Positions 38,362 through 55,344 of a DNA stretch of 64,000 nt are shown in pieces. Position 1 is the stretch's first letter; every line of letters starts with the position of its first letter. The notes under the pieces were generated by a model, which had not been told where the DNA came from, searched no databases, and worked only from the letters and a program-made list of their open reading frames with translations. The DNA is taken from assembly GCA_027317185.1 (NCBI GenBank), contig DAHVFB010000002.1, positions 10,360-74,359 on the forward strand. Reading direction: 5' to 3'. Origin of the DNA: Deltaproteobacteria bacterium. Lineage in GTDB: Bacteria; Desulfobacterota; Binatia; Binatales; Binataceae. The position numbers and the translations under genes are program-made.

Positions 38362-39465
38362 ATGAACGATGAATTAAAAGCCGGATTCGAGGATCGCACC
38401 GGGCAGGCGACGCCAGGTGTGAACCTGTGGCCGTCGATCGTAATCCCGAAAGAGGACATCGATGCGCAAATTGAGCGCCTCGCCAGTCTGCCGCCGCCGA
38501 TCAATGGACGGCGTCGCGCGCTCGTGGTCCATCCGATGGCCGACAGCGGGCGCGGACTGGCCCCCGGAATCCAGGTTTCGATCGACGTTCTAAAACCGGG
38601 CGAGCGCACCCGTCCGATTCGCCACAACTCATCGCAGGTGAACTTCTGCATCGGCGGCGCCGGACGGTCGCTAATCGGTGGCAAGCAGATCGTATTTTCG
38701 CAGTACGATGTATGGAATACGCCGTCGATGGCGATCTATCAGCATTTCAACGACACCAACGGTCTCCAGGTGCGGCTCACCTACAGCAACGCGGCGCTGC
38801 TCGAGAAAATGAACGTCCACTATATCGAAGATGATCCGCCATCCGGGCCGGCCGCGCATTCCGAAGCTGCCGAAGTCGCGGACCCCAACGATCCTTCGCG
38901 CGTGAATCCATTTGGGACCTTCCGAATCTCGGATGATGGCGCATACCTGATGCCATACGAGAAGCTGATTAACCCCGACGTGATCGAATCGAAAGCGCTG
39001 CACTGGCCATGGAAAATCGTCAAGGAGCATCTCGATAAACTTACGGCTCTGGGTTCCTCATACGTGGGACGGCGTTTGTATCTGCTTTATAATCCGGTTT
39101 CGGGCCGCACCAACGGCACCACGCACAATTTTTTCGCGACCATGACGGTGCGTCCGCCGAACATCGTGGACCGGCCGCATCGGCACGCCGCCGCCGCGAT
39201 CAACTACTACTTCTCCGGCAGCGGACGGAGCACGGTCGAGGGCAAAATTTACCGATGGAAGGCGGGCGACCTGATGCTATCGGCGCCGGGACTGGCGGTG
39301 CATAACCATGCTTCTAACGATGAGCCGGTTTACGAGCTGACCATCCAGGACAGCCCGTTGAATATCGCGATGGACTCCTTGCTCTGGCAGGAGAGCCTGA
39401 AGGGTCCGATAACGCTGCTGGGATCGCATACCGGATTCCAGACCAATCGCGCCAAGGCAGCATGA
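38362..39465 (+). CDS. Bicupin protein, gentisate 1,2-dioxygenase-like
   Basis: Two cupin modules (L.PGE...IRH...YQH; PHRH...HNH). Confidence 0.8.
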   Translation: MNDELKAGFEDRTGQATPGVNLWPSIVIPKEDIDAQIERLASLPPPINGRRRALVVHPMADSGRGLAPGIQVSIDVLKPGERTRPIRHNSSQVNFCIGGAGRSLIGGKQIVFSQYDVWNTPSMAIYQHFNDTNGLQVRLTYSNAALLEKMNVHYIEDDPPSGPAAHSEAAEVADPNDPSRVNPFGTFRISDDGAYLMPYEKLINPDVIESKALHWPWKIVKEHLDKLTALGSSYVGRRLYLLYNPVSGRTNGTTHNFFATMTVRPPNIVDRPHRHAAAAINYYFSGSGRSTVEGKIYRWKAGDLMLSAPGLAVHNHASNDEPVYELTIQDSPLNIAMDSLLWQESLKGPITLLGSHTGFQTNRAKAA

Positions 39466-39507
39466 ATGCCTAAACCCGCGATATCTACATGATGAGAGAG
39501 TAAGAAA

Positions 39508-40500
39508 ATGGGCAATATCCAGCTAAGCGTGGGCATTGGCGATTACTACCATGTCCGTCCGCTGTTCGATGGCTCGGTGCAGGTCGAGGGCGTGGATCTG
39601 ATTCACGTCGCCACCGGAACCGAGGAAATTTTCTGGCGGTTCGGTAAATATCGCGAATGGGATGTTTCCGAAATGTCGTTCGCAAACTACAGCGCGCAAC
39701 GCTCGCGCGACGACAGCGTGATGGTCGCGATACCGGTGTTTCCGTCGCGGGTGTTCCGCCATTCCTCGATCTACGTGCGCAAGTCGAGCGGCATTTCCAA
39801 GCCGAAGGATCTCGCCGGTAAAAAGGTCGGGGTGCCCGAATGGGCGCAGACCGCCGGTGTGTATGCGCGCGGCGAACTGGTGCATCAGGAAGGCCTGCGC
39901 CTGCAGGATATCGAATGGATTCAGTCGGGCGTCAACGAGCCTGCCCGTCAGGAGAAATTCACCTACCAGCTTCCCCCGGGATTACACGTCACGCCGCGGC
40001 ATGAACGATCGCTCAACGATCTGCTGGTCGAGGGACAGATCGACGCGATCATCACGGCGCGGACGCCGCTCTGCTTCGATCAGGGCAATCCCGAGGTGGT
40101 TCGGCTGTGGCCCGATTATGATCAGACCGAGGAAGAATACGGGCTGAAGACGGGAATCTTTCCGATCATGCATCTGATCGCGATCCGCGGCGAAGTTTAT
40201 CGCCAGTATCCATGGGTCGCGATGAACCTGTTCAAAGCCTTCGACGCCGCCAAAAAACTTGCGGTCGAGCGGCTGTTTCAGTTCACCATTTCGTGGCTGC
40301 CGATGGCGTGGCTGCCGCGCGCCGCGGAACGCACGCAACGGCTGTTCCAGGGCCATGAGTATTGGCCCTATGGAATCGAGCCGAACCGCATCACGATCGA
40401 AGCTTTTCAGCAATATCTCCATGAACAGGCGATCACCACCCGGCGATTGACGCCCGAGGAACTGTTCGCCAAAGAAACTCAAACGTTCGCGCGCATCTGA
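39508..40500 (+). CDS. 4,5-dihydroxyphthalate decarboxylase-like (periplasmic-binding fold)
   Basis: DVSEMS, IPVFPSR.FRHS, DLAGKKVGVPE..QTA, IFPIMH, WPYG...NR. Confidence 0.85.
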   Translation: MGNIQLSVGIGDYYHVRPLFDGSVQVEGVDLIHVATGTEEIFWRFGKYREWDVSEMSFANYSAQRSRDDSVMVAIPVFPSRVFRHSSIYVRKSSGISKPKDLAGKKVGVPEWAQTAGVYARGELVHQEGLRLQDIEWIQSGVNEPARQEKFTYQLPPGLHVTPRHERSLNDLLVEGQIDAIITARTPLCFDQGNPEVVRLWPDYDQTEEEYGLKTGIFPIMHLIAIRGEVYRQYPWVAMNLFKAFDAAKKLAVERLFQFTISWLPMAWLPRAAERTQRLFQGHEYWPYGIEPNRITIEAFQQYLHEQAITTRRLTPEELFAKETQTFARI

Positions 40501-40530
40501 CCGTCGGTCCAGTCAGGAGGAGGTTCAGGA

Positions 40531-41292
40531 ATGAGAATCGATAAAAAAGTGGCGTTAATCACCGGTGCGGGATCGGGAATCGGACGGGCAACCGCGAAAT
40601 TGTTTGCCGAAAATGGCGCGACGGTCGCGCTTGCCGATCTCAATGCTGAGGGCGGACGCGAAACCGAGCGGATGGTAACCGCGGCCGGCGGCAAGGCGCT
40701 TTTCGTTCAGACCGACGTAACCAAAGTGTCGGAAGCGAAACGGCTGGTGGACGCCGCCGTAGAGAAATTCGGACGCCTCGACATTCTGGTGAATGCGGCC
40801 GGCGTGTTTCTGTTCAAAGCGATCGCCGAGTGTACCGAGCAGGATTGGGACCACGTACTTGGCGTCGATCTCAAGGCGGTGTTCTTCGCTTCCAAATTCG
40901 CGGTCGCCGCGATGGAACAATCCGGCGGTGGTACGATCGTGAATATCTCGTCCGGATGCGGTCTGATTGGGATTCCGGAAAACACCATCTATACGGCGGC
41001 CAAAGGCGGCGTGATTGCGATGACGCGCGCCTTCGCGGTGGACTGCGCGCCGAAGAAAATTCGCGTCAATTGCATCTGCCCCGGCGTGATCGATACTCCG
41101 ATGAGCCGCGGCGCCTTCAAATCGCTACCGGATCCCGAGATGGCGGCCAAGGCCAACATGGCGCACACGCCGATGGGCCGTTTCGGCGAGCCGGAGGAGA
41201 TGGCCAACACGATCCTGTTCCTCGCCAGCGAGCAGTCGTCGTACTTCACCGGCGGAATTCTCGCCCCCGACGGCGGCTTCAGCGCCTGCTGA
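40531..41292 (+). CDS. SDR family oxidoreductase
   Basis: TGAGSGIG, NAAG, YTAAK, PG.IDT, DGG. Confidence 0.95.
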   Translation: MRIDKKVALITGAGSGIGRATAKLFAENGATVALADLNAEGGRETERMVTAAGGKALFVQTDVTKVSEAKRLVDAAVEKFGRLDILVNAAGVFLFKAIAECTEQDWDHVLGVDLKAVFFASKFAVAAMEQSGGGTIVNISSGCGLIGIPENTIYTAAKGGVIAMTRAFAVDCAPKKIRVNCICPGVIDTPMSRGAFKSLPDPEMAAKANMAHTPMGRFGEPEEMANTILFLASEQSSYFTGGILAPDGGFSAC

Positions 41293-41331
41293 CGCGATAA
41301 CGATACCGGTCTGGTGAAATGGATATGAGAA

Positions 41332-41361
41332 GGGCCCCGGAACGGTCGAGTTCCGGGGCCC
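41332..41361. terminator. Hairpin between convergent genes
   Basis: gggccccggaac-N6-gttccggggccc perfect 12-bp stem. Confidence 0.7.
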
Positions 41362-41390
41362 CATAGTTTAACGATCAGGGATTGTGCGAA

Positions 41391-42479
41391 TCAGTTCAGA
41401 CCGTAGAAGCGGCGCGAATTATCGTACAAAATCCCGCGCTTGTCGCTCTCCGTGAGCTCCGACGATTCCAGCACCTCGTCGATCTCATGCTTGCACAATT
41501 TGGCATCGACCTCATGCGGGAAATCCGATGAGAACAGGAAAGGCTCGCTGCCGAGCGTCTTGACCGCATGCGCCAGGTCGGGCTCGTCGCCTTCCACCCC
41601 GACGTAGATCCTGCCGTCGTGAATCAGCTTGCGCACATAAGCGCGAAAGTCGCCGTCTTTGGAAACCTTAACCAGCCGATGATCGGGATCGAATGGCGTA
41701 TGGATCTTGAACGATCCTTCGGCGCGCTCGATCGCGGTCAGAAACCAGCCGACTCCCGCTTCGAGGTAGGCAACCTTGAGACCCCCAAAGCGATCGAAAA
41801 TCCCGTTGTAAACCATGCTCACCAGCGCCCGCATCATGCCCATCGGATGGCCCAGCGCGTGATAGGCGGCGAACACATTAAGGTCGTCGAGGCCCATCTG
41901 ATCGTGACATCCGCCGTGAAATGCGACACAGGCGCCGAGCTTGTCGGCCTCGGCATACAGCGGCCAGTAATCCTGCGAACCCGGATGGGCCTTGATGCCG
42001 TTGCTCGGCAGCATCACGCCGCACATCCCGAGGTCTTTCACCGCGCGCCGCAGCTCCTTCACCGCGCCGTCCATGTCGCGCATCGGAACCAGGCCCATTC
42101 CCTTCAAACGGGAACTCTTGCGCAAATAGGCGTCCTGGAGCCAATCGTTATAGCCGCGCACGGCGGCGTTGGCGAAATAAGCGTCGGTGATCTTGCCGCA
42201 GGCGAGCCCGGCCGTAGGGTACAGGACCGAGTACTCGATCCCGGTATCCTCAAGGAACTGCACCCACTCCTCGGGCCCGACCCGTTTCACGCTCGCCCGC
42301 GTCATCATCTCTTCGATAAAGCCATTATCGATAAAAGCGGTATGGAAGTGATCAAGCGGCGGAAAAGTTCCAGTCAGCCGCGCATAGCGTTTGTACGGCT
42401 CGGGAATATAGTCGGCGATCGCCGCATTGTCCTCGAATACGTGTCCGTCCCCATCAATAACTTTCATGTTTGCGGTCAT
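41391..42479 (-). CDS. Amidohydrolase family 2 protein
   Basis: IDGDGH, YLEAG..W, FSSDFPH. Confidence 0.88.
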   Translation of the reverse strand: MTANMKVIDGDGHVFEDNAAIADYIPEPYKRYARLTGTFPPLDHFHTAFIDNGFIEEMMTRASVKRVGPEEWVQFLEDTGIEYSVLYPTAGLACGKITDAYFANAAVRGYNDWLQDAYLRKSSRLKGMGLVPMRDMDGAVKELRRAVKDLGMCGVMLPSNGIKAHPGSQDYWPLYAEADKLGACVAFHGGCHDQMGLDDLNVFAAYHALGHPMGMMRALVSMVYNGIFDRFGGLKVAYLEAGVGWFLTAIERAEGSFKIHTPFDPDHRLVKVSKDGDFRAYVRKLIHDGRIYVGVEGDEPDLAHAVKTLGSEPFLFSSDFPHEVDAKLCKHEIDEVLESSELTESDKRGILYDNSRRFYGLN

Positions 42480-42558
42480 GAGACGCTCCCATTCCTTGAT
42501 GCCCCATCAACTAGCACATTCGAGTTTGCGCCGTACAGCCGCCGATACGGAATCCGGC

Positions 42559-43941
42559 TTAACTGTTCGGCGGCACCGGCACAGCCGGTTGTAGCCATTT
42601 GGACAGGAAATACCAGGGCAGGCCAAAGGCGACCACCGCCAGACTGGTAAGGGCTTCCTCGGGACGGGTAAAAAGTACATACAGTACGATCCACGACAGG
42701 ACCGCGACGTATGCCGCCGGCAACCAGGGATGGCCGGGAATGCGAAATGGCCGCGTCATCCCGGGCCGGCGCACCCGCATCACGATCAATGAGGTAACGC
42801 TTAACCCCGAAAAGATGATAACTGCGAACCCGGTATACAGCACCACTTTTTCGAACGCACCAAAGAACAGAATGAGAACGCTCGACCAGATGGCCTGTAA
42901 CACCATCGCACGTGCGGGCGTGCCGAAAAACGGATTGATGGAAGCAATTCCTGACGGAAATACCCGATCGCGCGCCATCGCGAAGTACACCCGCGGCCCC
43001 GCGACCACCATCGCACTGGCCGAGTTCAGTATCGCCAGCGCCAGCACCGCCGTGATTCCTACCGCGGCGGCCGGCCCAAACAATTTTACCGAGGCTTTTT
43101 CCGCGACGGCCAGCACCCCGCTCATGGCGGGAATCGGCAACGCGTAAAGGTACAGCAGGTTCATGCCGGCATATAGAAAGATCACGACTGCGATGCCGAT
43201 CAGCAGGGCGCGCGGAAGGTTTCGCTGCGGATCGCGAATCTCCTCGGCGACGTATGCGGCGGAGTTCCATCCGCTGTAGGCATAAAGCACGAAAATCAGG
43301 GAGACGGCGGCGTTGCCGTGCGCCCGGCCATGCGAACCGAAGTTGGCGAAATTGCCATGCCCCGAAAGGAACCCACCTACGATTAGCGCGACGATCGCAG
43401 CGATGGTGCCGACAGTCAGTATCCGTTGCAGCACACCACCCGCGCGCAGGCCAGAGATATGCACCGCGGTGAGCACAGCGAGCACCGCGATCGCGATGAG
43501 CTTGCCGCCGATTCCACTGGCATCGGGGATCGCGGTCAAATGATGCATATAGCCGATCAGGGCGAGCGCAGCGGCGGCAATCGCACCGCTAAAGCCGACG
43601 AAAAACGAGGTCCACCCGCTCAGGTAGGACACCAGCGGACCGAAGGCCTCGCGCAGATAAACATATTCACCGCCGGCCTCGGGCATCGCGGCGCTGAGCT
43701 CGCTGTAGGACAGCGCGCCAATTGATTCGATCAGGCCGCCGGCGATCCACAGGCCGATCAGCCACCACGGCGATCCGATATCGCGCGCGATAAACCCGGA
43801 GGTGGTGAAGATGCCGCTGCCGATCGTGTTCGCGACCACCAGCGCCACTGCGACGTCGAGACCGATTGTACGGCGCAGTGGCGCGCGGCCGGGCCGCGCG
43901 CCACCTGCTCCTGCTTCCGAAGCGGCAGCCGGTATCGCCAC
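42559..43941 (-). CDS. APC family amino acid permease
   Basis: IGSGIF, ALSYSEL..AMP.AGG.YVYL, YAYSGW, R.YFAMARD. Confidence 0.92.
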   Translation of the reverse strand: MAIPAAASEAGAGGARPGRAPLRRTIGLDVAVALVVANTIGSGIFTTSGFIARDIGSPWWLIGLWIAGGLIESIGALSYSELSAAMPEAGGEYVYLREAFGPLVSYLSGWTSFFVGFSGAIAAAALALIGYMHHLTAIPDASGIGGKLIAIAVLAVLTAVHISGLRAGGVLQRILTVGTIAAIVALIVGGFLSGHGNFANFGSHGRAHGNAAVSLIFVLYAYSGWNSAAYVAEEIRDPQRNLPRALLIGIAVVIFLYAGMNLLYLYALPIPAMSGVLAVAEKASVKLFGPAAAVGITAVLALAILNSASAMVVAGPRVYFAMARDRVFPSGIASINPFFGTPARAMVLQAIWSSVLILFFGAFEKVVLYTGFAVIIFSGLSVTSLIVMRVRRPGMTRPFRIPGHPWLPAAYVAVLSWIVLYVLFTRPEEALTSLAVVAFGLPWYFLSKWLQPAVPVPPNS

Positions 43942-43950
43942 GATTTTACG

Positions 43951-46125
43951 CTAGAAAAATCGTGGCACCAGGAAGGAATAAATGCCGTTGCGCACGCTGT
44001 CCGTAGTGAAAATTTCTCCATGCGCCGGATCGATCGCGATACCACTGGGATGGATCAGATCGGTACCCGCGCCTCGAATGATCGCACGCGGCGCGATGTC
44101 GCCATTGTCACCGATGTTCCAGACGCCCACGAAGCCGAGCGGTCCGATCCATGGCAGTGGCGGCCCCTTGCAATCCTTCGCCGGTGCGAACCCACCGGGA
44201 TCGTAGGGCGGAAGATATTTGATGTTGGTGGCAATCGCGTAAATTTTGCCATCGTAGACCTGGACGTGCCACACCCCCACGATTCCGGTGGTCGGACCCG
44301 CGATCACGTCGCGCGGCGCAACGTTTCCGTTGTCCGTACGGTTGAACACGAACAGTCCGCCGTTATGATGCCAGGTGTTTCGGCCGAGCAGGCTGCCGAC
44401 CACGGCCAGATTGCGATCCGTGTCGATCGCAACTCCCGCCGTATACCACAGTCCTGTCTTCGACCCCATGATGATGCGTTTGGGCGCAATGTTGCCGTTG
44501 CCGTCGAGCGGAAACACCAGTAGGGCATCGGTCCGCGAGTCGGCGACCCACAGTTCATTATTCTTAAGGTCCACCGCAGGCTGATATGGCCCGTGAAGCT
44601 GGGTCTTGGGTCCCTGGATCACCCGAATCGGCGCAGCTTCGCCGGACGCATCGCCCCGGAAAAAGGTGATCGAACTGGCCAGCGGTTCGGTGGAGATGAT
44701 TACATCGTGCGCCGGATCGTAGACGATTCCATGCGCGACGCGTGTAAGCTTGGTCTTCTGTCCTTCGATTATCCGTTCCGGCTCGCTATTTCCACTTGCC
44801 ATCCTGGCAAATGCCGCAATACGCGGATCGCTTACTCAGTTCGGGACTAGCAATACGTCCCGCTTGGTGTCGTACGCTATCGCCATCGGATTGCCGAAGC
44901 CGGCGGCGGGAGTGCCGGCGGGCGCGTTGCGCAAGATCCGTTTTGGAGCCACGTTGCCAGAGGCGTCAAGGTCAAACACCTCGGCCTCATGGCCGAAGTT
45001 TGCCACCCATAGCTCCTTGCGAATCGGATCGAACGCCACGCCCATCGGATGGATGATGTGGGTCAGTGGCCCGCTGAGCGTGCGTACCGGCGCCACATCG
45101 CCGTTATCTCCGCGATGAAAAATCAGAACCTCGTTCGACGGCTCCTGGGCCACGGCGATTAAATTGTTCAGATTGTCGACCGCGATTCCGGTCGGCCAGT
45201 CGAGCTGGGTTTTCGGCCCTTGAATTACCTGCAGCGGGGCCGCATCCCCCTTCGCATCGCCACTGAACACTTCGACCGACGGGGGATAGTAATGTCCGCC
45301 GCCGTTGTAGTCCGCGTCCCAGTAGCCGCGCGACCAATTGCCATAATTGGTCACGAAAATCTTATCGCTCTTTTCGTCCCAGGCCACCCCATGCGGGTCG
45401 GCGAGTTTAGTCTTTAGTCCGCGGATCGACCGCAACGGTAACGCAGCGCCCTGCGCACCGAGGCGATAGAAGATAATCTGGGCGTTATGCTGGATTGCAA
45501 CCGCCATCTGATGGTGCTTCTGGCTGAGTGCAATTCCATACGCGCCATGCGGTACGGCCAAAGCGCGCGATTTGAAGTCGCCGTTCGCGGTATAGGGAAA
45601 CGCGGCGACATCATCGCCAATATCGTTTTCGGTGGTATACAGTTCATGCCGAACCGGGTCGAGCGCCACTCCGGCCGCGAAGGACAGATAGGTGGCGGGC
45701 CCCTTAATCCAGCCCTTGTATGGGGTTATGTCTTTCGCTGATGGCGGTCCGCCGGCGTCGATCGAGTAGACCAGCGCGCTTTTCAGATTGGTATCGCTTA
45801 GAACCGCCACCCCGTTGCGCGGATCGAGCGCGATGCCATTGAACTCGGGATATGGATCTTCGAGCGCACGGCATGGAGCTACTTCACCGCCCGGAATCTT
45901 CGACAAGACGGCTTCGAACTTCTCCGACACGCCTAAATTGTTAACCGAGGCATTCACCGGCGATCGCGAAGGTTGATTCATGCCGGATGGCGCAGCGCTG
46001 CCGTCCGGGGAGGACGCCGCGATTGCTTGATTCGATGAAAACCGGTTGCTGCCGTTGGTAGGTAAGAGCGCGAAGGCCGTGATGACGGCCGCGCCAATAG
46101 CTATCCTGAACCTTATCGATCTCAT
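43951..46125 (-). CDS. Secreted NHL/beta-propeller repeat protein, predicted selenoprotein (724 aa, Sec at in-frame UGA 44836-44838, residue 430)
   Basis: Two track ORFs joined in frame by one UGA plus 11 sense codons; the G(N/D)xAP.R.I.G..T.L..P.G.A.D repeat continues across the stop; N-terminal signal peptide; SECIS-like hairpin. Confidence 0.75.
44793..44835 (-). promoter_or_regulatory. Bacterial SECIS-like element
   Basis: mRNA after the UGA: GUAAGCGAU-CCGC-GUAUU-GCGG-CAUUUGCCA-GGA-UGGCAAGUG; 9-bp stem with a G-containing apical loop starting about 31 nt after the UGA. Confidence 0.65.
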
Positions 46126-46317
46126 GCTTTGCGAATAGTGAATGCCTACTCAGGTGTCAACCTTTATCGCGTAAAAACGCACGGATCGGGTAAATTCGCC
46201 GCTCCTTGACTTGAAAGCGATCACCATGTTACGCCGCTCGCAGTAGCCCAGCGACTCCTTTATAACTCTGTTAATAAGAAGCTTCTCAGGTGCACTCACG
46301 GTCGAGGAAGACAGGTT

Positions 46318-47181
46318 ATGCATCATAATCGATTTGACTATACGCCGGTTTCGAAACGGCCAATCATTAAATGGCCGAACGGCGCCCGGCTGGCGGTGTG
46401 GGTCATTCCTAATATCGAATGGCACGAGTTCGATGGTCCCGGGGTCGGAACCAATCCACCACCCGGGTATTTGCCGGACATCCTGAATTTCGGTTGGCGC
46501 GATTACGGACTGCGTGCGGGTATCTGGCGCATGATGGACACCCTCGACCGTTTCGGCATGCGCGCCACGGTGGCCCTCAACGCGCTGGTCTGCGAGCACG
46601 TTCCGGAGATCATCGCGGAGGGCAAAAAACGCAATTGGGAGTTCATGGGCCACGGCATGACGAACTCCCAACTGCTGGCCGGTCTCAGCCTCGACGACGA
46701 GCGCCGCGTAATCAATCAGGTTTGCGATACGATCAAAAAACATGTCGGCACGGCTCCCAAAGGATGGCTCGGGCCGGCGCTGGCCGAGACCGTCAACACG
46801 CCCGACCTGCTGGCTGAGGCCGGCGTCAAATATGTCTGCGACTGGTGTAACGACGATCAGCCATACCCATTCAAAGTGAAGCAGGGCAGCCTGATTTCGG
46901 TGCCTTATTCGATCGAGATCAACGACATACCGTTCTTTGTCGGCAAAGGCGCTACGGGCAAGGACTTTGGCGATGCCATCCAGGATCAGTTCGACGTGCT
47001 GTATGAAGAGGGCGCGAAGACCGGCAAGGTGATGGCGCTCGCGCTGCATCCGTTCCTCGTCAGCGTGCCTCATCGCCACAAGCACTTCGTGCGCGCGCTG
47101 GAGTACATCACGCGCCATCGCGATGTCTGGTTGACCACCGGCGGCGAAATCGCGGATTGGTATTACAAGCATTGTATGTAA
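46318..47181 (+). CDS. Polysaccharide deacetylase family protein (PuuE/allantoinase-like)
   Basis: WPNGARLAVW...N.E, W.DYG.RAG.WR, EFMGHG, PKGWLGP, DDQPY, LHP. Confidence 0.88.
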   Translation: MHHNRFDYTPVSKRPIIKWPNGARLAVWVIPNIEWHEFDGPGVGTNPPPGYLPDILNFGWRDYGLRAGIWRMMDTLDRFGMRATVALNALVCEHVPEIIAEGKKRNWEFMGHGMTNSQLLAGLSLDDERRVINQVCDTIKKHVGTAPKGWLGPALAETVNTPDLLAEAGVKYVCDWCNDDQPYPFKVKQGSLISVPYSIEINDIPFFVGKGATGKDFGDAIQDQFDVLYEEGAKTGKVMALALHPFLVSVPHRHKHFVRALEYITRHRDVWLTTGGEIADWYYKHCM

Positions 47182-47215
47182 CCGGAGCCATCCGATGGCC
47201 CCCAAGGAGAACGTC

Positions 47216-47926
47216 ATGAGGATTTGGGATTCATTCATCACCGATCGTGACAGGAAGATTTTCTCGGCGGCTGGGATGGGTCAGAAGGCGGGCTTTGGCA
47301 GCAATCTGGCTCTGATTATTATCGATGTTACCTACGCATTCACCGGCGAAGGCGATCCGATCGAGGAATCGGTCAAGCGCTATCCCATGAGTTGCGGCAC
47401 GGAAGCCTGGGTTGGCGTCAAGCACAACCAGCAGCTTCTGGAAGCTGCGCGCCGCACTGGCATTCCGGTTTTCTACACCTTGACCGAATATCGCACCGAC
47501 AAAGCCGATGTCGGTGGATGGGCCGGCAAGCAGGCGCAGGCCGCGCATCCTTCAATGATCGAAGGTTCCAAGGGCGCGCTAATCGTCGAAGATCTGACCC
47601 CCGCCGCGGGCGAACTCGTGATCTCGAAGAAAAAGCCCAGCGCGTTCTTCGGCACCCCAATCGTCTCGTATCTGGTTGAGCGGAAGATCGATACGGTGAT
47701 CATCACCGGATGCACCACCAGCGGATGCGTGCGCAGCTCGGTGGTCGACGCTTTCTCGCTTAACTACAAAGTCATCGTGCCCGAGGAATGCTGTTTCGAT
47801 CGCGGACAGGCTTCGCATGCGCTCAACCTGTTCGACATGCATCAGAAGTATGCTGATGTGATCCCGACTGCGGAAGTTATCGCGCAATTGGGTAAGCGGC
47901 CCTCGGCGCGGCAGGCGGCAGCTTAA
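47216..47926 (+). CDS. Isochorismatase/cysteine hydrolase (maleamate or N-carbamoyl amidohydrolase-like; alternative start 47195)
   Basis: IID, K.KPSAFFGT, GCTTSGCVR (D-K-C triad), H..NLFD...KY. Confidence 0.9.
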   Translation: MRIWDSFITDRDRKIFSAAGMGQKAGFGSNLALIIIDVTYAFTGEGDPIEESVKRYPMSCGTEAWVGVKHNQQLLEAARRTGIPVFYTLTEYRTDKADVGGWAGKQAQAAHPSMIEGSKGALIVEDLTPAAGELVISKKKPSAFFGTPIVSYLVERKIDTVIITGCTTSGCVRSSVVDAFSLNYKVIVPEECCFDRGQASHALNLFDMHQKYADVIPTAEVIAQLGKRPSARQAAA

Positions 47927-47970
47927 CTTTGCCAACGCACTGAGCTGAGTCCGACTTGGATTGTTTCCCG

Positions 47971-48011
47971 AAGCTGGCGTCCGGCGGTTGCCGGGCGCCA
48001 GTTTAGTTTTT
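47971..48011 (+). terminator. Intrinsic terminator
   Basis: aagctggcgtccggc-ggtt-gccgggcgccagttt stem followed by a T-rich run. Confidence 0.7.
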
Positions 48012-48034
48012 CACTGATCACCTATCGGCCGCCG

Positions 48035-49843
48035 CTACCACGGCCGGACCGTGCGCACGTCGATCACCGCGACGCCGCCTTGTTCGACGATCGCAACCGC
48101 TTCGCTCAGCGCCGTTTCCAGATCCTTCGCCGTGTCGATCGGACCTTTCGCCCACGCGCCGAAGCCTCGGCTCACGGTGGCGAAATCGATCTCGGGATTA
48201 AACATCGCGGTGCCAATCCAGGCGTTTTCCAGCGGTCGTTCCCGATGGCGCGCCATTTTCCGCTGATGCTCCTCATCGTTCATAAAGGAAAGATTGTTAT
48301 CGATAATCGCCAGCAACGGAATGCTATAATGCACCGCGGTCCATAGCGCCGCCGCGGACATCACCATGTCGCCGTCGCCCAGAATCGCAACCGGAAGCTT
48401 GCCCTGCCGATGGGTCGCTAGCGCAGCGCCAACCGACGCGCCCGGCCCGTAGCCGATTCCGCCGCCGACGTTCGCGCCGAGGTAGTCGCCTACGCCCTGA
48501 AACTCCCACACGCCCTCGGGCCATCCTTTGATGGATCTTCCCGAAAGCACGTATTCCCGCCCCTTTAGCGCGTGCCACAACATATCGACCAGCCGCGCCC
48601 TTGAGACCCCCGATTCGTTTGCGCGAGTAATTGCAGATTCGGCTTGATGGGCGCGAAGCGCGCGATGACGGTCGGTTAGCTTTGCGATTCGCGCCTGAAT
48701 CCTGGCAGCGATTTCCCGGTCAGCAGTGCGGGACTTAACCGCTTCGATCAACTGGCGCAGGCCGGCGATCGGATCGGCCAGCAGACGGATATCGGCGGGC
48801 GAGATATCACCGCCAACTCGCGACCATGAACGAAACGCGAAGTCATTCAATGACAGATCGATTACAGTCAGATTGGGCAGCGTAGCCGGGCGTCGTCCCT
48901 CCTCGTCGCCATAGAGTCCCACCAGGTCGGGCACGTCGAGTACGTCGACCGCCAGCACCACATCTGCTTCCTTAAGAATCTGCGAATCGCCATTGAGGTT
49001 TTGTGGATGGCGGCTCGGAAACGATACGTGATTCATTTGATCGATGTAGGCCGCGCCGGTGGCCTCGACCAACTCGATCAGCGGAGCGGTTGCGCGCGGA
49101 TCGTAGGCCAGGCTGCCGGCCGCGATCAGCGGCAGTTTCGCCGACAGCAAGGCCTCCGCCGCGCGCGCAATGGAAGCGGTATCGGCGCAGATCGACGCAG
49201 GCGCTTGGTAGCGCGGCAGCTTCACGTCGGGAAGCGGTAGCGGTCCCGCTAATGCGGTCTCCTGCAAAATCTTGTCGAGCGCGATATAGACCGGCCCATA
49301 GGGCGGCGTGGTGGCGATCTTATGTCCGCGCAGAATCGAACTGATCGCCGCCGCCGGGGTAGTCGGTTCATCCTCCCATTTGACAAATGGCCGGACCAGT
49401 TCACCCTGAGTGCTGGCCGAATGCGTGAAATCGATCCATCGCCGCCAGTTGGGATCGGACGGGCCTGCGCCGCCAAGGATCAGGAGCGGAGTGCGATCGC
49501 ACCACGCGTCGTAGACCGCCATCGAGGCGTGCATCAATCCGACCAGGTTGTGACAGATCGCCAGGCCCGGCTTTTGCGCCACTTTCGCATAGCCATGCGC
49601 GAACGCCACCGCAATTTCCTCATGCGTGCACAGCAACACCTTGGGCGTTTGATTGCGATGGTGGTTGATTAATGAATCGTGCAGCCCGCGAAAGCTCGAT
49701 CCGGGGTTCAGGGTGACGTATTCGTAGCCCAGCGCACCCAGCAGATCGACGATCACGTCCGATACATACTGCGGCTCTGGCCGTGGTCCCGCGAGCCCGA
49801 CCGGGGTCTCGATCTCACTGGTTTTGATGGTTCTGTTGTTCAT
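48035..49843 (-). CDS. Thiamine pyrophosphate-binding enzyme (acetolactate synthase/decarboxylase superfamily)
   Basis: NPGSSFRGLHDS, HEE.AV..AHGYAK, GDGD...DNN ThDP motif. Confidence 0.9.
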   Translation of the reverse strand: MNNRTIKTSEIETPVGLAGPRPEPQYVSDVIVDLLGALGYEYVTLNPGSSFRGLHDSLINHHRNQTPKVLLCTHEEIAVAFAHGYAKVAQKPGLAICHNLVGLMHASMAVYDAWCDRTPLLILGGAGPSDPNWRRWIDFTHSASTQGELVRPFVKWEDEPTTPAAAISSILRGHKIATTPPYGPVYIALDKILQETALAGPLPLPDVKLPRYQAPASICADTASIARAAEALLSAKLPLIAAGSLAYDPRATAPLIELVEATGAAYIDQMNHVSFPSRHPQNLNGDSQILKEADVVLAVDVLDVPDLVGLYGDEEGRRPATLPNLTVIDLSLNDFAFRSWSRVGGDISPADIRLLADPIAGLRQLIEAVKSRTADREIAARIQARIAKLTDRHRALRAHQAESAITRANESGVSRARLVDMLWHALKGREYVLSGRSIKGWPEGVWEFQGVGDYLGANVGGGIGYGPGASVGAALATHRQGKLPVAILGDGDMVMSAAALWTAVHYSIPLLAIIDNNLSFMNDEEHQRKMARHRERPLENAWIGTAMFNPEIDFATVSRGFGAWAKGPIDTAKDLETALSEAVAIVEQGGVAVIDVRTVRPW

Positions 49844-50051
49844 CAGTCACCTGCACTTCTGCCCGGTTTAACGAAGAAATCGATCATGGGTTATGTTCAA
49901 ACGGGGCTACTATACAACAGCCATCGGCCGGCGCGAGCGCCGTGTCAGATGACGGCCCAGCGGCGGTCGTGATAGCGCGTCGGCGCCAAATCACCGATCG
50001 GGACTGGTACTGGCCCGCGAGACTCACTGAATCCAACCTTTTCAGCTCTCC

Positions 50052-50732
50052 TCACGCCGAGAGCATTGAATCGAAGCCTTTCCAGAAGCCATGACACAGT
50101 GTGCGCGCCTCGACCAGGAACTCCTCCTCGTGGCCGGTGCCGGTCACCAGCCGATCGATCAGCCAATGTCCGGTCTCGCTGTGATCCTTGTCGGCTTCGT
50201 AATGGACGTCGAGAAACCGCAGATCGGATGGCTTCATGCCGTAATGCTCCTGCAGTCCGATTTGGAGCTTTTTGTAGGCGTGCACCTCCATCTCTTCGGA
50301 CAGCCCAAAGCCGCCCAGGTAGCGCGGCTTCAAATAAGCAATCCGATAGAACAGGGCGTTGGAGGCGAGCGATTCTTCCGAACCGATCGAGTCGAGAAGC
50401 TGCGGGCGGGGCATCCCCAGCGCCTGTTCCCACATCTCGCACAGCAATTCAGTATGGCCGGCGCTGTGGCTTAGCAATCCCAGCGCTTCTTCGGCAAAGT
50501 TTTGCGCGATATGTTGTGCGGCATCCAGATCGAGTTCACGCAGCCGCAGGTAGGCCAGCGCCGCGAGCGGTCCCGAGTCCTTCACCGTCATCGCATAATG
50601 TTCGATCGGATAACGCTTGAGTTGCTCCCTGGTCGCTTCGCCCCGGCTGACGAGCTCCACGTAAGGGTGCTTGGTCAGGTCGTACTCCCTGACGATCTTT
50701 TCGATTTCAGCATAAAATTGTTTCTTATCCAT
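50052..50732 (-). CDS. Heme-oxygenase-like diiron enzyme (CADD/PqqC/TenA superfamily)
   Basis: NFAEE.LG....GH.EL and VH.EAD.DH metal motifs; ggagg RBS before ATG 50732. Confidence 0.8.
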   Translation of the reverse strand: MDKKQFYAEIEKIVREYDLTKHPYVELVSRGEATREQLKRYPIEHYAMTVKDSGPLAALAYLRLRELDLDAAQHIAQNFAEEALGLLSHSAGHTELLCEMWEQALGMPRPQLLDSIGSEESLASNALFYRIAYLKPRYLGGFGLSEEMEVHAYKKLQIGLQEHYGMKPSDLRFLDVHYEADKDHSETGHWLIDRLVTGTGHEEEFLVEARTLCHGFWKGFDSMLSA

Positions 50733-51019
50733 GGGCTCACCTCCCGCTGAACACACTGTTTGTCCAAGAGGATCCGGCGACGTACGACTCCGGCGCCGAC
50801 TCCATCGGGGATAGATAATCAAACCGGCATTGTGCGTCTGTCAAACAAAAAGCTCTACGCCGCAATCGCGCCCCAGCCCAATAAGCGCCCCGAGTCTTGT
50901 CGATCGGTGAACGGAGACTACAATCAAAGCCCCTGATAACCGCAAAAAACCTCGAACGGATTTCGCGCGGACGGCCGCTGTATACCGATGCAGGGAGCAT
51001 ACTGCCGGAAGGATTTTGA

Positions 51020-53158
51020 ATGATGGATTATCTGGTCGGAATCGATATCGGTGGCACCTGCACCGATTGCGTCGTGATTGCAGGCGATGGGCGGGTGACG
51101 GTCGGCAAAGCCTTTTCCAGCCCACCGGATTTCTCGAGGGGCATTCTCGATGCGCTTTCGGTTGCCGCGCAATCGATCGGAATTACCTCGCGCGACATTC
51201 TCGCCAATACTCGCCTGTTCCTGCATGGCACCACGGTTGCCGAGAATGCGATGGTCGATGGCAACCTGGCGCGCGCCGCTCTGATCACCACCCGCGGCTT
51301 TGAGCATACGCTCTTCACTACGCGGGGCGGCTACGGCCGCTGGTCAGGACTGACGGAAGACGAAAAGCGCGATCCGGTCAACACCGACAAGCCTCCGCCA
51401 ATTATTCCAATTGCGAATATCCGTGCGGTGCGCGAGCGCACCGACCATAACGGCCGCCTGCTGGCAAAGGTCGGCGAAGAAAACATTCGCGCGGCGGTTC
51501 GCAGTCTGGCGGGCGAGCAAATTGAGGCTTTGGGAATCAGTCTGCTGTGGTCATTCGTCAATCCGACCAACGAGCAGATCGTCGCCAGTATCGTGCGCGA
51601 AATGCGTCCCGATTTGTTCGTTACGCTTTCCTCGGACATCGCGCCGATTCTGGGCGAATACGAACGCACGTCAACCGTCGCTTTGAATGTTTCGCTGGGC
51701 CCGGTGATCGCACGCTATTTGAGCAATTTACTCGATGGACTCCGCCAGCTTGGTTTTGGAGGTAATCTGCTGGTGATGCAGGCGCACGGCGGATTGCTGC
51801 CGTTGGAGCAGGCGGCCGCACGACCAATTGGGATGGTGGAATCGGGGCCGGTAGGGGGACTGGTCGGATGCAAGCGGCTGGGCGACTTGATCGGCATCCG
51901 CAACGTGATTTCCGCCGACATGGGCGGCACCACGTTCAAAGTCGGCACCGTGCGCGACGGACTGATCGAGTATCAGCGTGAGTCGATGGTCCTGCGGTAT
52001 CATTATTCGCTGCCTAAAATGGACGTGGTCAGCCTCGGCCTGGCTGGTGGCAGTGTGATTTCGATCGAACCGCGCACCCGTTCGCCGCGGGTCGGGCCGC
52101 GCAGCGCGGGTTCGTATCCGGGCCCGATCTGTTACGATCATGGCGGTACCGAGCCCACCCTGACCGATGTCGATGCGATCCTCGGCTATCTGAACCCAAG
52201 CTATTTTCTTGGCGGGCGCGCCCGGCTGAATATCGAAAATGCCCGGCATGAATTCGAGGCCCAAATCGCGAAACCATTGGGTATGCCGTTGATCGAGGCG
52301 GCCGCCGCGATGCACAAACTCGCCAATTCGATGATTTACGACCTGCTGCATAAAACCACCGTGCAGCGCGGCCTGGATCCCCGTGAATTCGCTCTGTTCT
52401 CGACCGGCGGCACAGCCGGGATGCATCTGCCGGCGGTAGGTCAGGAATTGGGCGTCAAGAGTATCGTGGTGCCGCACTCGGCCTCGGTTCACGGAGCCTT
52501 TGGGCTGGCTACCTCGGACATCGTCCATGAGGAACTGATCACCCGTCCGCAACGCCATCCGGCTGACTATCGAATGGTCGATGGAATTTTTAACGAAATG
52601 CTGGAGCGAATACGCATCCAGCTCGAAGCCGAAGACTTCTCCAACGAGCGCGTCGAGTTCCATCGATCGATCGACGTGCGCTATCGCCGTCAGGTCCACA
52701 TCCTGACCGTCCCGCTGGATGAAGGTTCACCTGCCATGCGGCGCAACCATCCCGCGTCAGTCACGGGCGAGATGCTTGACGCCACCGTTGCGCGGTTCGA
52801 GGCGCTCTACAAACAGAAATATGGCGCCGACTCGACTTTTCGAGAGGCTGGGGTCGAGTTGGTTACCTTCCGGGTGCGCGGCGTCGGCCTGGTGCACAAG
52901 CCCGAGCTGCAAATGGCGCCGCTTGGCGACCGTGACGCAAGCCCTGCTATTGTCGAGCGGCGCCCGGCCTACGTTCCCGATCTGGGACGGGTGGTCGAAA
53001 CCACCGGTTACGATTTCGAACATTTGCGCCCCGGCAACGTGATTCCGGGACCCTCGATTATTTGGACCCCGATTACGACCGTAGTGGTTGGCAGCCGTCA
53101 GACCACTGTCTGCGACGGCCTCAGGAATCTTATCATCACGGCTGCCGCCGCCGCGTGA
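51020..53158 (+). CDS. Hydantoinase A / oxoprolinase family protein
   Basis: GIDIGGT.TD, HGTT, EYER.ST, ESGP.GG, DMGGTT, GP.SAG..PGP.CY. Confidence 0.94.
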   Translation: MMDYLVGIDIGGTCTDCVVIAGDGRVTVGKAFSSPPDFSRGILDALSVAAQSIGITSRDILANTRLFLHGTTVAENAMVDGNLARAALITTRGFEHTLFTTRGGYGRWSGLTEDEKRDPVNTDKPPPIIPIANIRAVRERTDHNGRLLAKVGEENIRAAVRSLAGEQIEALGISLLWSFVNPTNEQIVASIVREMRPDLFVTLSSDIAPILGEYERTSTVALNVSLGPVIARYLSNLLDGLRQLGFGGNLLVMQAHGGLLPLEQAAARPIGMVESGPVGGLVGCKRLGDLIGIRNVISADMGGTTFKVGTVRDGLIEYQRESMVLRYHYSLPKMDVVSLGLAGGSVISIEPRTRSPRVGPRSAGSYPGPICYDHGGTEPTLTDVDAILGYLNPSYFLGGRARLNIENARHEFEAQIAKPLGMPLIEAAAAMHKLANSMIYDLLHKTTVQRGLDPREFALFSTGGTAGMHLPAVGQELGVKSIVVPHSASVHGAFGLATSDIVHEELITRPQRHPADYRMVDGIFNEMLERIRIQLEAEDFSNERVEFHRSIDVRYRRQVHILTVPLDEGSPAMRRNHPASVTGEMLDATVARFEALYKQKYGADSTFREAGVELVTFRVRGVGLVHKPELQMAPLGDRDASPAIVERRPAYVPDLGRVVETTGYDFEHLRPGNVIPGPSIIWTPITTVVVGSRQTTVCDGLRNLIITAAAAA

Positions 53159-53178
53159 ACCGTCGCAGGAGATAGGAA

Positions 53179-55344
53179 ATGAACAATGCAGTGGACGCGG
53201 TCACTTTCGAGATCATTCGTCACCGCCTGAACCAGGTGATCGAGGAAGCGATCGTCGCGTTGGAAAATGTATCAGGCTCGCCGATCACCAACGAAGGCCA
53301 CGACATGATGGTTTCGCTGTATCGGGCGGACGGCGGCCTGATGGTTGGCGGAATGGGTTTTCTGCATCATCTGACCAGCGCGGCGCAGGCGGTCAAGCAT
53401 ATTCTCGCCACTTATTCGGAAGATCCCGGAATCGATCAAGACGATGTCTTCATGCTCAACGATTCCTATACCGCCGCCCTTCATCCGCCCGATGTGTACC
53501 TTATCTCGCCGGTGCATTATCAGGGGAGGCTAACCGGATTCGTCGGCAACTTCGTGCATATGACGGACATCGGAGCGATCGATCCGGGTGGCTTTTCACC
53601 CAACGCCCGCGAAGCTTTTCAAGAAGGCTTCGTCACGCAGGGCTTGAAGATCGTCGAACGTGGCCGGCGGCGGCGCGACGTCATCGAAACGTTTTTGCGC
53701 AACGTGCGCGATCCGGGGATGACGGGTCTCGATTTAAAATCGCAACTGGCGGCGAATCACGTCGCCAAGGAGCGTCTGCGCAAGTTGTACGATGATTATG
53801 GCGTGCAGGCAGTCGATCAAGTTTCGGAAGAGTTGATCCGGCAGTCGGAACGGCTGATGCGCGAGCGGCTGCGCGAATTGCCTGATGGCGTATGGCGCGC
53901 CCGCCAATATGTCGATATGCCCGAGGGGCTTTACCGGGTCGAGCTGGCGGCGATCAAGGAAGGCGACACTCTCACCTACGACTTCACCGGGACCGATCCG
54001 CAAGTCGACAAAGGTATCAACTCTTGTTACTGGGGCAGTTGGGGCGGAATTTTCGCGCCGATCTTCCCATTGTTGGCATGGGATGTGGGCTGGAACGAAG
54101 GCGTCACCAAACCGATCAGGATCATCGCGCCCGAAGGCACCTTGGTGAACTGTATCCGTCCGGCGCCGGTTTCAGTCGCGACCACCGGCGTGATTCAGAT
54201 CGTCAATAACCTGTCGGTCAACGTATTGTCGCGCATCCTCGGCGCGAGCGAGCGTTATCGCGATCGCGCCACCGGCGTATGGCACGGCAGCCATCTGCCA
54301 CTGATGATTAGCGGTCTCGACGAGCACAAAGACTACTTCGTAACCTTGCTCACCGACACCTTCGCGGGCGCCGGGGGTGCGCGTGCTTTCGCCGATGGGG
54401 TCGATAACGGCGGCGAAATTCCGAATGTGGTTTCACGCTGGGCGAACGTCGAAACCGAAGAACTGCATCGGTCGATAGCCTATCTTTATCGTAGCCCGGT
54501 GCCGGACTCGGGCGGACCGGGTAAGTATCGCGGCGGGGTTAACCACGAATTCGCTTTCACGCCTCACGATACTGGCACCGGCGCAATCCATCTTGGGCTT
54601 ACCTCAAAGGGACTCAAAGTTCCGCTGAGCCTGGGAATTTTCGGTGGCTTACCGGGTAGCACTATCGCGCAACTGATCTTTCGCAAGGCCAATCTGGAAG
54701 ATATGCCCACAAGTTTTACCGAAACGCGTGGCGAGAAAGTTGAGGCGGTTCATTGGGGCGATTATTCGGTCAGCGAAGGCGACATCGTTTATATCCGTTT
54801 TCAGGGCGGCGGCGGATATGGCGATCCGATCGATCGTGACCCCGAGCGCACGCTGCGTGATGTGCAGATCGGGATGGTATCGCCAGCCGCGGCGCATGCG
54901 ATCTACGGCGTGGTGTTGGATCCGGCCAATGCGCGGGTTGACCATAGCGAGACGCGGGCGAGACGCGCGAAGATCCGCCACGAGCGAATCGGCCACCCGG
55001 TCGCTGCCGAGCTATACGATCGCGGCAACATCCCGCCCAGCCATCAGCCGCTCGGCGAATATCTGCAGCAGGTCGGCGACGCAAAAAGCGTATTTGTCCA
55101 GTGTACGTGGTGCGGTCACGAGCTCTCACGCGCGGGCGAGCAATGGAAGGACAAGGCCATCGCGCGGGCGCTTCCAATCTCGGCGGCGGGCGATTTCCGC
55201 GATGCTGCGCCGGGCTTGATCATGCGGCAGTTCTATTGTCCGCGATGCGCCACGCTGCTCGATACCGAGGTGGTGCTGGAGTCCGATCCGCCACTCTATG
55301 ACGATGTGCGCCGCTGGCCGCGCCCGGAAAACGGGAACGTCTGA
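53179..55344 (+). CDS. Hydantoinase B / oxoprolinase family protein with a C-terminal acetone carboxylase gamma-like Zn domain
   Basis: ND.Y...H.PD, H..DIG...PG, DSGGPG.YRGG, GGGGYGDP..R; C-terminal CTWC...CPRC. Confidence 0.93.
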   Translation: MNNAVDAVTFEIIRHRLNQVIEEAIVALENVSGSPITNEGHDMMVSLYRADGGLMVGGMGFLHHLTSAAQAVKHILATYSEDPGIDQDDVFMLNDSYTAALHPPDVYLISPVHYQGRLTGFVGNFVHMTDIGAIDPGGFSPNAREAFQEGFVTQGLKIVERGRRRRDVIETFLRNVRDPGMTGLDLKSQLAANHVAKERLRKLYDDYGVQAVDQVSEELIRQSERLMRERLRELPDGVWRARQYVDMPEGLYRVELAAIKEGDTLTYDFTGTDPQVDKGINSCYWGSWGGIFAPIFPLLAWDVGWNEGVTKPIRIIAPEGTLVNCIRPAPVSVATTGVIQIVNNLSVNVLSRILGASERYRDRATGVWHGSHLPLMISGLDEHKDYFVTLLTDTFAGAGGARAFADGVDNGGEIPNVVSRWANVETEELHRSIAYLYRSPVPDSGGPGKYRGGVNHEFAFTPHDTGTGAIHLGLTSKGLKVPLSLGIFGGLPGSTIAQLIFRKANLEDMPTSFTETRGEKVEAVHWGDYSVSEGDIVYIRFQGGGGYGDPIDRDPERTLRDVQIGMVSPAAAHAIYGVVLDPANARVDHSETRARRAKIRHERIGHPVAAELYDRGNIPPSHQPLGEYLQQVGDAKSVFVQCTWCGHELSRAGEQWKDKAIARALPISAAGDFRDAAPGLIMRQFYCPRCATLLDTEVVLESDPPLYDDVRRWPRPENGNV

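Follow-up and report, generated by a model that had tools for sequence, protein, structure and literature searches.

Two open reading frames joined by an in-frame UGA

The DNA analysed here is a 64,000-nt window of a Binataceae genome (G000), and the subject of this analysis is a pair of open reading frames (ORFs) at 43951–46125 of its minus strand that together encode a predicted secreted beta-propeller; all coordinates are those of the window, and the gene and its ORFs all lie on the minus strand. The first frame, ORF1 (44836–46125, stop included), encodes 429 amino acids and ends in the letters ...AIAYDTKRDVLLVPN followed by TGA. The second, ORF2 (43951–44802), encodes 283 amino acids in the same frame, and its ATG (44800–44802) is directly preceded by codons for VSDPRIAAFAR. 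Between the TGA (44836–44838) and this ATG lie exactly 33 nt (44803–44835). When 43951–46125 is translated with TGA read as U, the product is a chain of 724 residues that runs to a TAG stop and has its sole U at position 430, and homologues align over residues 1–724 with exactly one TGA. An earlier reading of the letters, made without database searches (the sequence-only reading), had described this layout and a 724-residue read-through protein, and retranslation of the minus strand reproduced the coordinates, the 33-nt gap and a frame that stays intact to the TAG. It had also matched the junction to the preceding repeat. A blade-wise cut of the protein gives the same register, in which ELWVAN-FGHEAEVF of blade 6 matches VLLVPN-U-VSDPRIAAF of blade 7 across the TGA.

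These data argue strongly that 43951–46125 is one gene for a 724-residue exported protein with 12 NHL/YWTD-like blades. Gene callers halt at the UGA, and so report a 429-amino-acid protein plus a spurious 283-amino-acid protein. Residues 1–22 (46060–46125), a basic MRSIRFR followed by a hydrophobic stretch, look like a signal peptide, which on sequence alone suggests that the propeller is exported.

The UGA position is conserved and exchanges with cysteine

All protein searches were run with cysteine substituted for selenocysteine (Sec). A search of 61 genomes (that of the window and 60 relatives) returned 28 full-length homologues with exactly one internal TGA, at 44–84% identity; one of the genomes, G020, is flagged as unpublished and counts in this tally alone. 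The TGA column is shared by all 27 of the relatives extracted from the class of the window, in the context LVPN-U-V[ST]xPRI, and the spacer peptide that follows it is conserved with synonymous changes. Two paralogues lack the stop; both are in one genome, G008, and both have Cys at the TGA column. Among full-length database homologues at 34–46% identity, Cys430 is invariant (31 of 31), and no segment of the protein is more conserved than the one that holds it. The family signature spans residues 396–475 and holds N429-U430-V431 and H465. We also scanned species-representative genomes with an alignment of the natural Cys homologues as the query. In the best 80 of 155 confirmed loci, which come mostly from metagenome-assembled genomes (MAGs) of Acidobacteriota (Vicinamibacterales, Terriglobia, Blastocatellia and Bryobacteraceae) and also from Binatia, 77 of the 86 family sites carry TGA and nine carry Cys; one more locus ends at the site. 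The sequence-only reading had proposed checking the VPN[U/C]V column in homologues, and this column proved to hold TGA or Cys throughout, never Trp or Gly. In a FastTree phylogeny of 110 sequences of at least 600 residues (100 with U and 10 with C, out of 113 extracted), at least four U-to-C, that is, Sec-to-Cys, changes are required and the midpoint root is U.

It could be argued that the locus holds two real genes, so that the TGA ends a 429-amino-acid secreted propeller and a 283-amino-acid protein starts 33 nt further on. Exactly two ORFs are what standard ORF calling yields, and public annotation contains many such pieces. The database homologues are split products, with N-terminal pieces of 400–454 amino acids named ‘hypothetical protein’ or ‘YncE’, and Atlas look-alike clusters measure 282–303 and 395–504 amino acids. 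The sequence-only reading had foreseen that standard annotation would split the gene, and pieces of about 430 and about 285 amino acids are indeed what is deposited; hundreds of database entries are probably truncated as a consequence. Termination at the UGA probably competes with Sec insertion, and a 429-amino-acid product may therefore exist. As an account of the locus, however, two genes seem highly improbable to us: the stop lies within blade 7, the 11 codons of the spacer show conservation at the protein level, the ORF2 start codon is not conserved (M, L, V, S or E among homologues), Cys stands in place of the stop in 31 + 2 + 9 homologues, 27 + 77 sequences have the TGA in one fixed frame and position, and the 283-amino-acid product would be without a signal peptide.

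Taken alone, a lone in-frame stop in one metagenome-derived genome looks just like a broken gene, whether a nonsense pseudogene or an assembly or sequencing error. We give this explanation almost no credence, because all 27 class relatives have the same codon, as do 77 further sites in genomes that were assembled independently, and because protein-level conservation goes on downstream of the TGA. Contigs assembled by Logan from run X1 (depth 13.8), which is possibly the source of this DNA, are identical to the window over 44600–45050. Apart from X1, a search for sequencing runs that contain this DNA gave two runs with almost none of its words, and no RNA run. The check for a sequencing error proposed in the earlier reading thus came out in part as hoped: a second assembly reads the same letters, but it may rest on the same reads and is not independent.

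Two covarying hairpins follow the UGA

Two adjacent hairpins lie right after the UGA, inside the coding sequence. Hairpin 1 (44814–44826) is a 5-bp helix 9 nt past the UGA (alignment columns 13–17 and 21–25), with a minimum free energy (MFE) of −4.9 kcal/mol. Hairpin 2 (44793–44813), the likely SelB-binding core of a selenocysteine insertion sequence (SECIS), has an MFE of −10 kcal/mol (z −4.0). Across 101 distinct TGA forms, 96.3% of cells are paired, compared with 36.5–51% when the partners are slid by 1–3 columns. Changes on both sides of a pair occur in seven of the 13 pairs (94 cells), which none of 500 shuffles reached. Columns 16/22, for example, change from C-G to A-U in 27 sequences and columns 30/42 from U-A to C-G in 24, and several of the paired changes sit at synonymous third positions. 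Each hairpin contributes to this signal: 95.4% of cells are paired in hairpin 1, with both-sided changes in three of its five pairs, and 96.8% in hairpin 2, with both-sided changes in four of its eight. The loop G of hairpin 2 (column 35) is invariant in all 101 sequences. In the Cys forms (n = 10), pairing drops to 68.5% of cells overall and to 56% in helix 1, which indicates that the hairpin constraint is specific to the TGA forms.

For bacterial SECIS elements (bSECIS), published criteria are an apical loop of 3–9 nt, a stem of 4–16 bp, a G in the first two loop positions, a spacing of 16–37 nt and an MFE of −7.5 kcal/mol or lower (PMC13188914, section 5). Hairpin 2, with its 5-nt loop AGGAU, 8-bp stem, position 30 nt past the UGA and MFE of −10 kcal/mol, falls within all of them. 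The arrangement resembles the intragenic SECIS of E. coli fdhF, in which an in-frame UGA is likewise followed immediately by a stem-loop within the coding sequence (model in PMC13188914). It also shares with the bSECIS model a loop G at position 2 followed by G/U, the 30-nt spacing, the existence of Cys homologues and the presence of selA–D in the genome. It differs from both in having an extra covarying hairpin between the UGA and the SECIS core, in belonging to a beta-propeller rather than to a molybdopterin or thioredoxin-fold enzyme, and in leaving the Rfam models silent.

Selenocysteine machinery and the genetic code

The genome of the window, 93% complete, encodes SelA, SelB, SelD and a tRNA-Sec with anticodon TCA, so that all four of the genes that the earlier reading had suggested looking for (selA, selB, selC and selD) are present. 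Its SelD is interrupted by one in-frame TGA and is itself a selenoprotein; the gene (contig C111, 49955–51131; loci L002/L003) adjoins selB on the same contig and strand. SelA was also found in all ten of the other tested genomes that carry TGA forms. In another genome, G064, two opposite-facing TGA copies of the propeller gene lie about 3 kb from selA (contig C2, 961871–967371; the genome of locus L099) and may form a selenoprotein-machinery gene cluster with it.

Another way to join the two frames would be to read the UGA as Trp, Cys, Gly or Arg, through a near-cognate or suppressor tRNA or a changed code. No known SECIS family was matched in Rfam, as such a mechanism would lead one to expect. 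Yet TGA terminates six of the 11 Pfam-supported genes of the window as well as homologues of the propeller gene itself, and genome-wide reassignment of TGA was rejected on this ground, since the codon is an ordinary stop here. The column holds Cys in homologues and neither Trp nor Gly, the covarying hairpins agree with the bSECIS model and lose pairing in the Cys forms, and the full Sec machinery is present here, with SelA in ten of ten other carriers. Read-through without Sec is thus very improbable in our view.

These data suggest that the gene is very probably a genuine selenoprotein gene in which UGA 430 encodes Sec. The codon would be decoded by SelA, SelB, SelD and tRNA-Sec, directed by the two-hairpin bacterial SECIS within the coding sequence. 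Several points count against this conclusion. Sec at position 430 is a prediction from sequence, and both the protein searches and the structure model were run with Cys in its place. The 77:9 ratio of U to C comes from the best 80 of 155 loci in a scan seeded with family motifs, and for that reason is not an unbiased frequency. The X1 contigs, from the probable source run, give no independent support for the TGA. Finally, an Rfam search of 43800–46300 in E-value mode returned no SECIS family and only two chance snoRNA-like matches.

Fold of the protein and place of Sec430

The protein matches the Pfam NHL family (PF01436) at 44.5 bits against a cut-off of 20, with its best stretch at residues 241–263. 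An AlphaFold2 model built from a 32-sequence alignment has a mean predicted local distance difference test (pLDDT) score of 84.9 and a predicted template modelling (pTM) score of 0.84; the blocks covering residues 421–440 score 91–95, and residues 1–65 are disordered, with pLDDT below 50. The model contains 12 four-stranded blades over residues 86–719, in keeping with the roughly 12 NHL-like blades and the structure-prediction check of the earlier reading, and these would most simply form two six-bladed beta-propellers. On the strands assigned by DSSP and the blade-wise cut, the first half comprises blades 1–6 (residues 83–392; 44950–45879) and the second, for which the alignment was also used, blades 7–12 (residues 393–724; 43954–44949). 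The modelled strands of blade 7 come from all three parts of the gene: 417–419 and 424–428 from ORF1, 435–440 from the 11 ‘intergenic’ codons VSDPRIAAFAR (44803–44835), and 451–454 from ORF2. The earlier proposals that the stop falls mid-blade and that the spacer codons supply the expected strand therefore agree with the model. Its placement of Sec430 in a loop between two propellers does not: the residue sits in a tight turn between strands 424–428 and 435–440, within blade 7 and within the most conserved segment of the family. By repeat register, this turn follows the ‘ELWVAN’-type strand and lies on the same face as the loops of three histidines, H245 and H465 (both invariant) and H379 (nearly so). 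By analogy with YWTD blades, the loop of Sec430 would be on the usual ligand-binding face.

Comparison with known structures brought up NHL/YWTD propellers such as LRP6, Utp proteins, TRIM2/3 and Brat. The best Foldseek match, LRP6 E3E4, shares the tandem-propeller arrangement; among the Foldseek matches, whole-model TM-scores are only 0.26–0.35. The NHL domains of TRIM2, TRIM3, Brat and NHLRC2 were matched in the PDB profile search over stretches of only about 80 residues. TRIM2, TRIM3, Brat and LRP6 are eukaryotic modules that bind RNA, proteins or ligands, and they have neither Sec nor an invariant Cys. Many homologues bear the JGI name ‘DNA-binding beta-propeller fold protein YncE’, and the family shares with YncE/COG3391 and with the ‘beta-propeller fold lactonase family’ the property of being an exported bacterial propeller. 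YncE, however, is a single seven-bladed propeller, whereas here there are 12 blades in what would be two propellers, and YncE is not known to be a selenoprotein. The profile search, which matched 13 PDB sequences at E ≤ 0.001, had no YncE chain among them and detected no relationship to YncE. Membership in the SBP56/SELENBP1 family was considered and rejected for lack of a Pfam match. A further cysteine, Cys652 (codon at about 44170–44172), lies in a low-confidence loop (636–660); 27 of 29 class relatives conserve it, as do fewer than 25% of the sequences of the 110-sequence alignment, which are mostly of acidobacterial type.

A second cysteine and the possible chemistry of Sec430

The sequence-only reading had noted that the protein lacks a CxxU redox motif and had left its chemistry undefined. 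Neither CxxU nor UxxC occurs in the propeller, and to this extent the observation stands; it overlooked a distant second cysteine that is conserved, which makes a Sec–Cys redox pair conceivable. Of 81 scan sequences, mostly acidobacterial, 70 have a cysteine in the N-terminal extension, and this cysteine is nearly invariant in the 31 Cys homologues. In the protein described here it is Cys85 (codon 45871–45873), in an APCR motif right before DPYP, and it is the candidate resolving cysteine for Sec430; the column is Cys in 23 of 29 class relatives, and in other Sec forms a Cys is shifted by a few residues or lies further upstream. A reading of the N-terminal cysteine as that of a lipoprotein was rejected because no lipobox was found.

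We propose that Sec430, in its turn on the loop face of blade 7 near N429 and H465, both invariant in the family, and H379, may serve as the reactive centre of an enzyme or binding site outside the cytoplasm, that in its cycle it would most likely pair as a selenenylsulfide with Cys85, the conserved N-terminal cysteine of this protein, and that the propeller may act on small molecules that are then taken up. Placement, reactive centre, selenenylsulfide cycle and substrates together form one tentative part of the interpretation, which we judge to be somewhat short of an even chance. As to the chemistry by itself, a Sec–Cys redox site ranks first among the options, followed by a metal ligand and then by a hydrolytic propeller, and we favour it with a confidence that stays below one half.

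Several observations speak against this proposal. Both Cys-form paralogues have Val at the Cys85 column, and by blade register Cys85 starts a strand on the loop face opposite to that of Sec430. Foldseek searches against the PDB returned only generic tandem propellers, with LRP6 E3E4 on top at TMq ≤ 0.35, and no enzyme; the PDB profile search (13 sequences at E ≤ 0.001) likewise returned NHL repeats and generic propellers and no enzyme. The neighbouring genes are heterogeneous, and TonB-dependent receptors make up none of the 30 immediate neighbours examined in the class of the window.

Rather than forming a couple with cysteine, Sec430 might bind a metal together with conserved histidines (H465, H379 and H245), in a structural or catalytic role or for metal capture. 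The conserved histidines do stand in loops on the same face by blade register, and Sec binds Ni, Mo and W in hydrogenases and formate dehydrogenases (PMC13188914, section 7). In acidobacterial-type loci, moreover, TonB-dependent-receptor-like outer-membrane barrels are the commonest neighbours, accounting for 20 of 61 immediate ones. Receptors of this kind often import metal chelates. A Pfam scan found neither a metal-site motif nor a metal domain, though, and the second conserved cysteine suits a redox pair, so a metal ligand is in our estimate rather unlikely.

A lactonase- or lyase-like hydrolytic propeller, in which residue 430 (Sec or Cys) would be the nucleophile or would be non-catalytic, appears more doubtful still, and we regard it as improbable. 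It would account for the names that source databases give to homologues (lactonase-family proteins), for an amidohydrolase and a hydantoinase among the catabolic neighbours, and for weak Pfam matches to Arylesterase (PF01731, 29.1 bits against a cut-off of 21.3), SGL (PF08450, 27.1 against 26.3) and Lactonase (PF10282, 25.1 against 21.7). Each of these matches is, however, a single short stretch of 30–57 profile residues, which amounts to blade-level likeness, and there was no lactonase in the PDB profile search. Known instances of Sec, a costly residue, are mainly at sites of redox chemistry or metal binding (PMC13188914), and the invariance of residue 430 speaks against a passive role.

If the Sec–Cys redox proposal holds, the protein might found a new class of selenoenzymes that act outside the cytoplasm. 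Such an enzyme would be a tandem propeller whose loop-face Sec joins a tethered N-terminal cysteine in a selenenylsulfide, and it would carry out redox reactions on substrates at uptake loci, beside TonB-dependent receptors in Acidobacteriota and beside permeases and catabolic genes in Binatia; we consider this possible but, on balance, doubtful. Were it true, the family would be among the most abundant selenoprotein families of soil, at 2–5 copies in each acidobacterial genome and 18 in one genome of the Binataceae, and nutrient acquisition by dominant soil bacteria would be tied to the supply of selenium.

Copy number and hosts

Copies were counted with a pattern that combines Asn-UGA with the hairpin invariants and that gave no match in a reversed control. 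The genome of the window (G000) has two pattern sites, and its relatives G001, G003 and G054 have two, three and one; G008, also of the Binataceae, has 18. Five acidobacterial-type genomes carry 2–5 TGA sites each. The sequence-only reading had described a single hidden gene, and this view gives way to that of a large family, widespread in Acidobacteriota, with two copies in the genome of the window and 18 in one relative. The second copy in G000 (contig C248, 10535–12550; L038/L150) is 60% identical to the first and has the same in-frame TGA and hairpins. The largest bacterial selenoprotein gene set given in the passages of the deep-Sep paper that were searched comprises at least 46 genes in total; set against this number, 18 copies of one family in one genome imply that selenoproteome sizes in Acidobacteriota and Binatia are probably underestimated. 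The propeller would add a selenoprotein to these two groups, which are common in soil and hardly covered in the selenoproteome literature searched.

At five loci (L107, L112, L113, L119 and L121) in several acidobacterial genomes, two subfamilies adjoin each other, one with VS[VE]PRIS and the other with VAHPQIA after the Sec or Cys. Such paired proteins may act together; both members of the L121 pair are Cys forms. Copies that most resemble the acidobacterial set (L057, L064, L067 and L116) come from MAGs with the labels Rugosimonospora, Verrucomicrobiia, Methylomirabilota and Calditenuaceae archaeon; the copy in the last of these is a Cys form. This points to mis-binning or gene transfer.

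Standing among known selenoproteins

A review of May 2026 lists 119 prokaryotic selenoprotein families or subfamilies (PMC13188914, Table 1). With these families the propeller shares a single Sec per protein and Sec/Cys pairs among homologues, and envelope or exported selenoproteins are also among them, such as the FCYXU-type TonB-dependent receptor and thiol:disulfide interchange proteins (PMC13188914). The propeller differs from the catalogued families in being an NHL propeller without UxxC or CxxU. The earlier reading had recommended a comparison with existing catalogues, and none of the 119 families is listed as NHL, propeller or lactonase. Neither the text of that review nor the searched passages of the deep-Sep paper contain the words propeller, NHL, YncE, lactonase or Binat. 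NCBIfam release 20 holds no model for the family, the only match being NF008258 at 20.5 bits against a cut-off of 370. Full-text literature yielded no propeller, NHL or YncE selenoprotein and none from Binatia, although supplementary tables could still list one.

The recoding mechanism is standard. The propeller family, by comparison, seems to be missing from the catalogues of selenoproteins, and its fold seems to be new among them. Known selenoproteins are dominated by thioredoxin-like folds (PMC13188914), and the family would add the beta-propeller to them; an invariant Sec or Cys in an exported propeller is a concrete residue to probe.

Genomic neighbourhood

An APC-family amino-acid permease gene (42559–43941, minus strand; Pfam AA_permease_2, E = 2.3e-54) starts 9 nt after the stop of the propeller gene, with which it is probably co-transcribed. 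The surrounding genes of the window (38362–55344) include those for a cupin/AraC-like protein, an NMT1-like binding protein, an SDR enzyme, an amidohydrolase_2, a deacetylase-family protein, an isochorismatase-like protein, a thiamine pyrophosphate (TPP) enzyme and hydantoinase A/B, a catabolic neighbourhood that suggests the breakdown of an N-heterocycle or an amide.

Elsewhere, neighbouring genes were picked by a composition-scored heuristic, which called 52 upstream and 51 downstream genes for the 77 loci; plain ORF clustering of neighbours was confounded by antisense shadow ORFs in GC-rich DNA. For 22 copies in class relatives, 30 immediate neighbours were examined, and these include three Rieske/LigXa oxygenases, two amino-acid permeases and two MFS transporters. 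Downstream neighbours scanned alone were uninformative, and apparent second copies downstream of L077, L072, L092 and L103 were rejected because tblastn did not confirm them. The receptor neighbours of the acidobacterial-type loci resemble the setting of E. coli yncE, which adjoins the TonB-dependent receptor gene yncD. The common theme of the neighbourhoods is the transport and catabolism of small molecules, and we infer that the propeller may work on such substrates outside the cytoplasm. Next to the propeller gene in the window, a 363-amino-acid ORF on the minus strand (46150–47241) almost wholly overlaps the polysaccharide-deacetylase-family gene on the plus strand (46318–47181), and looks like a shadow ORF of GC-rich DNA.

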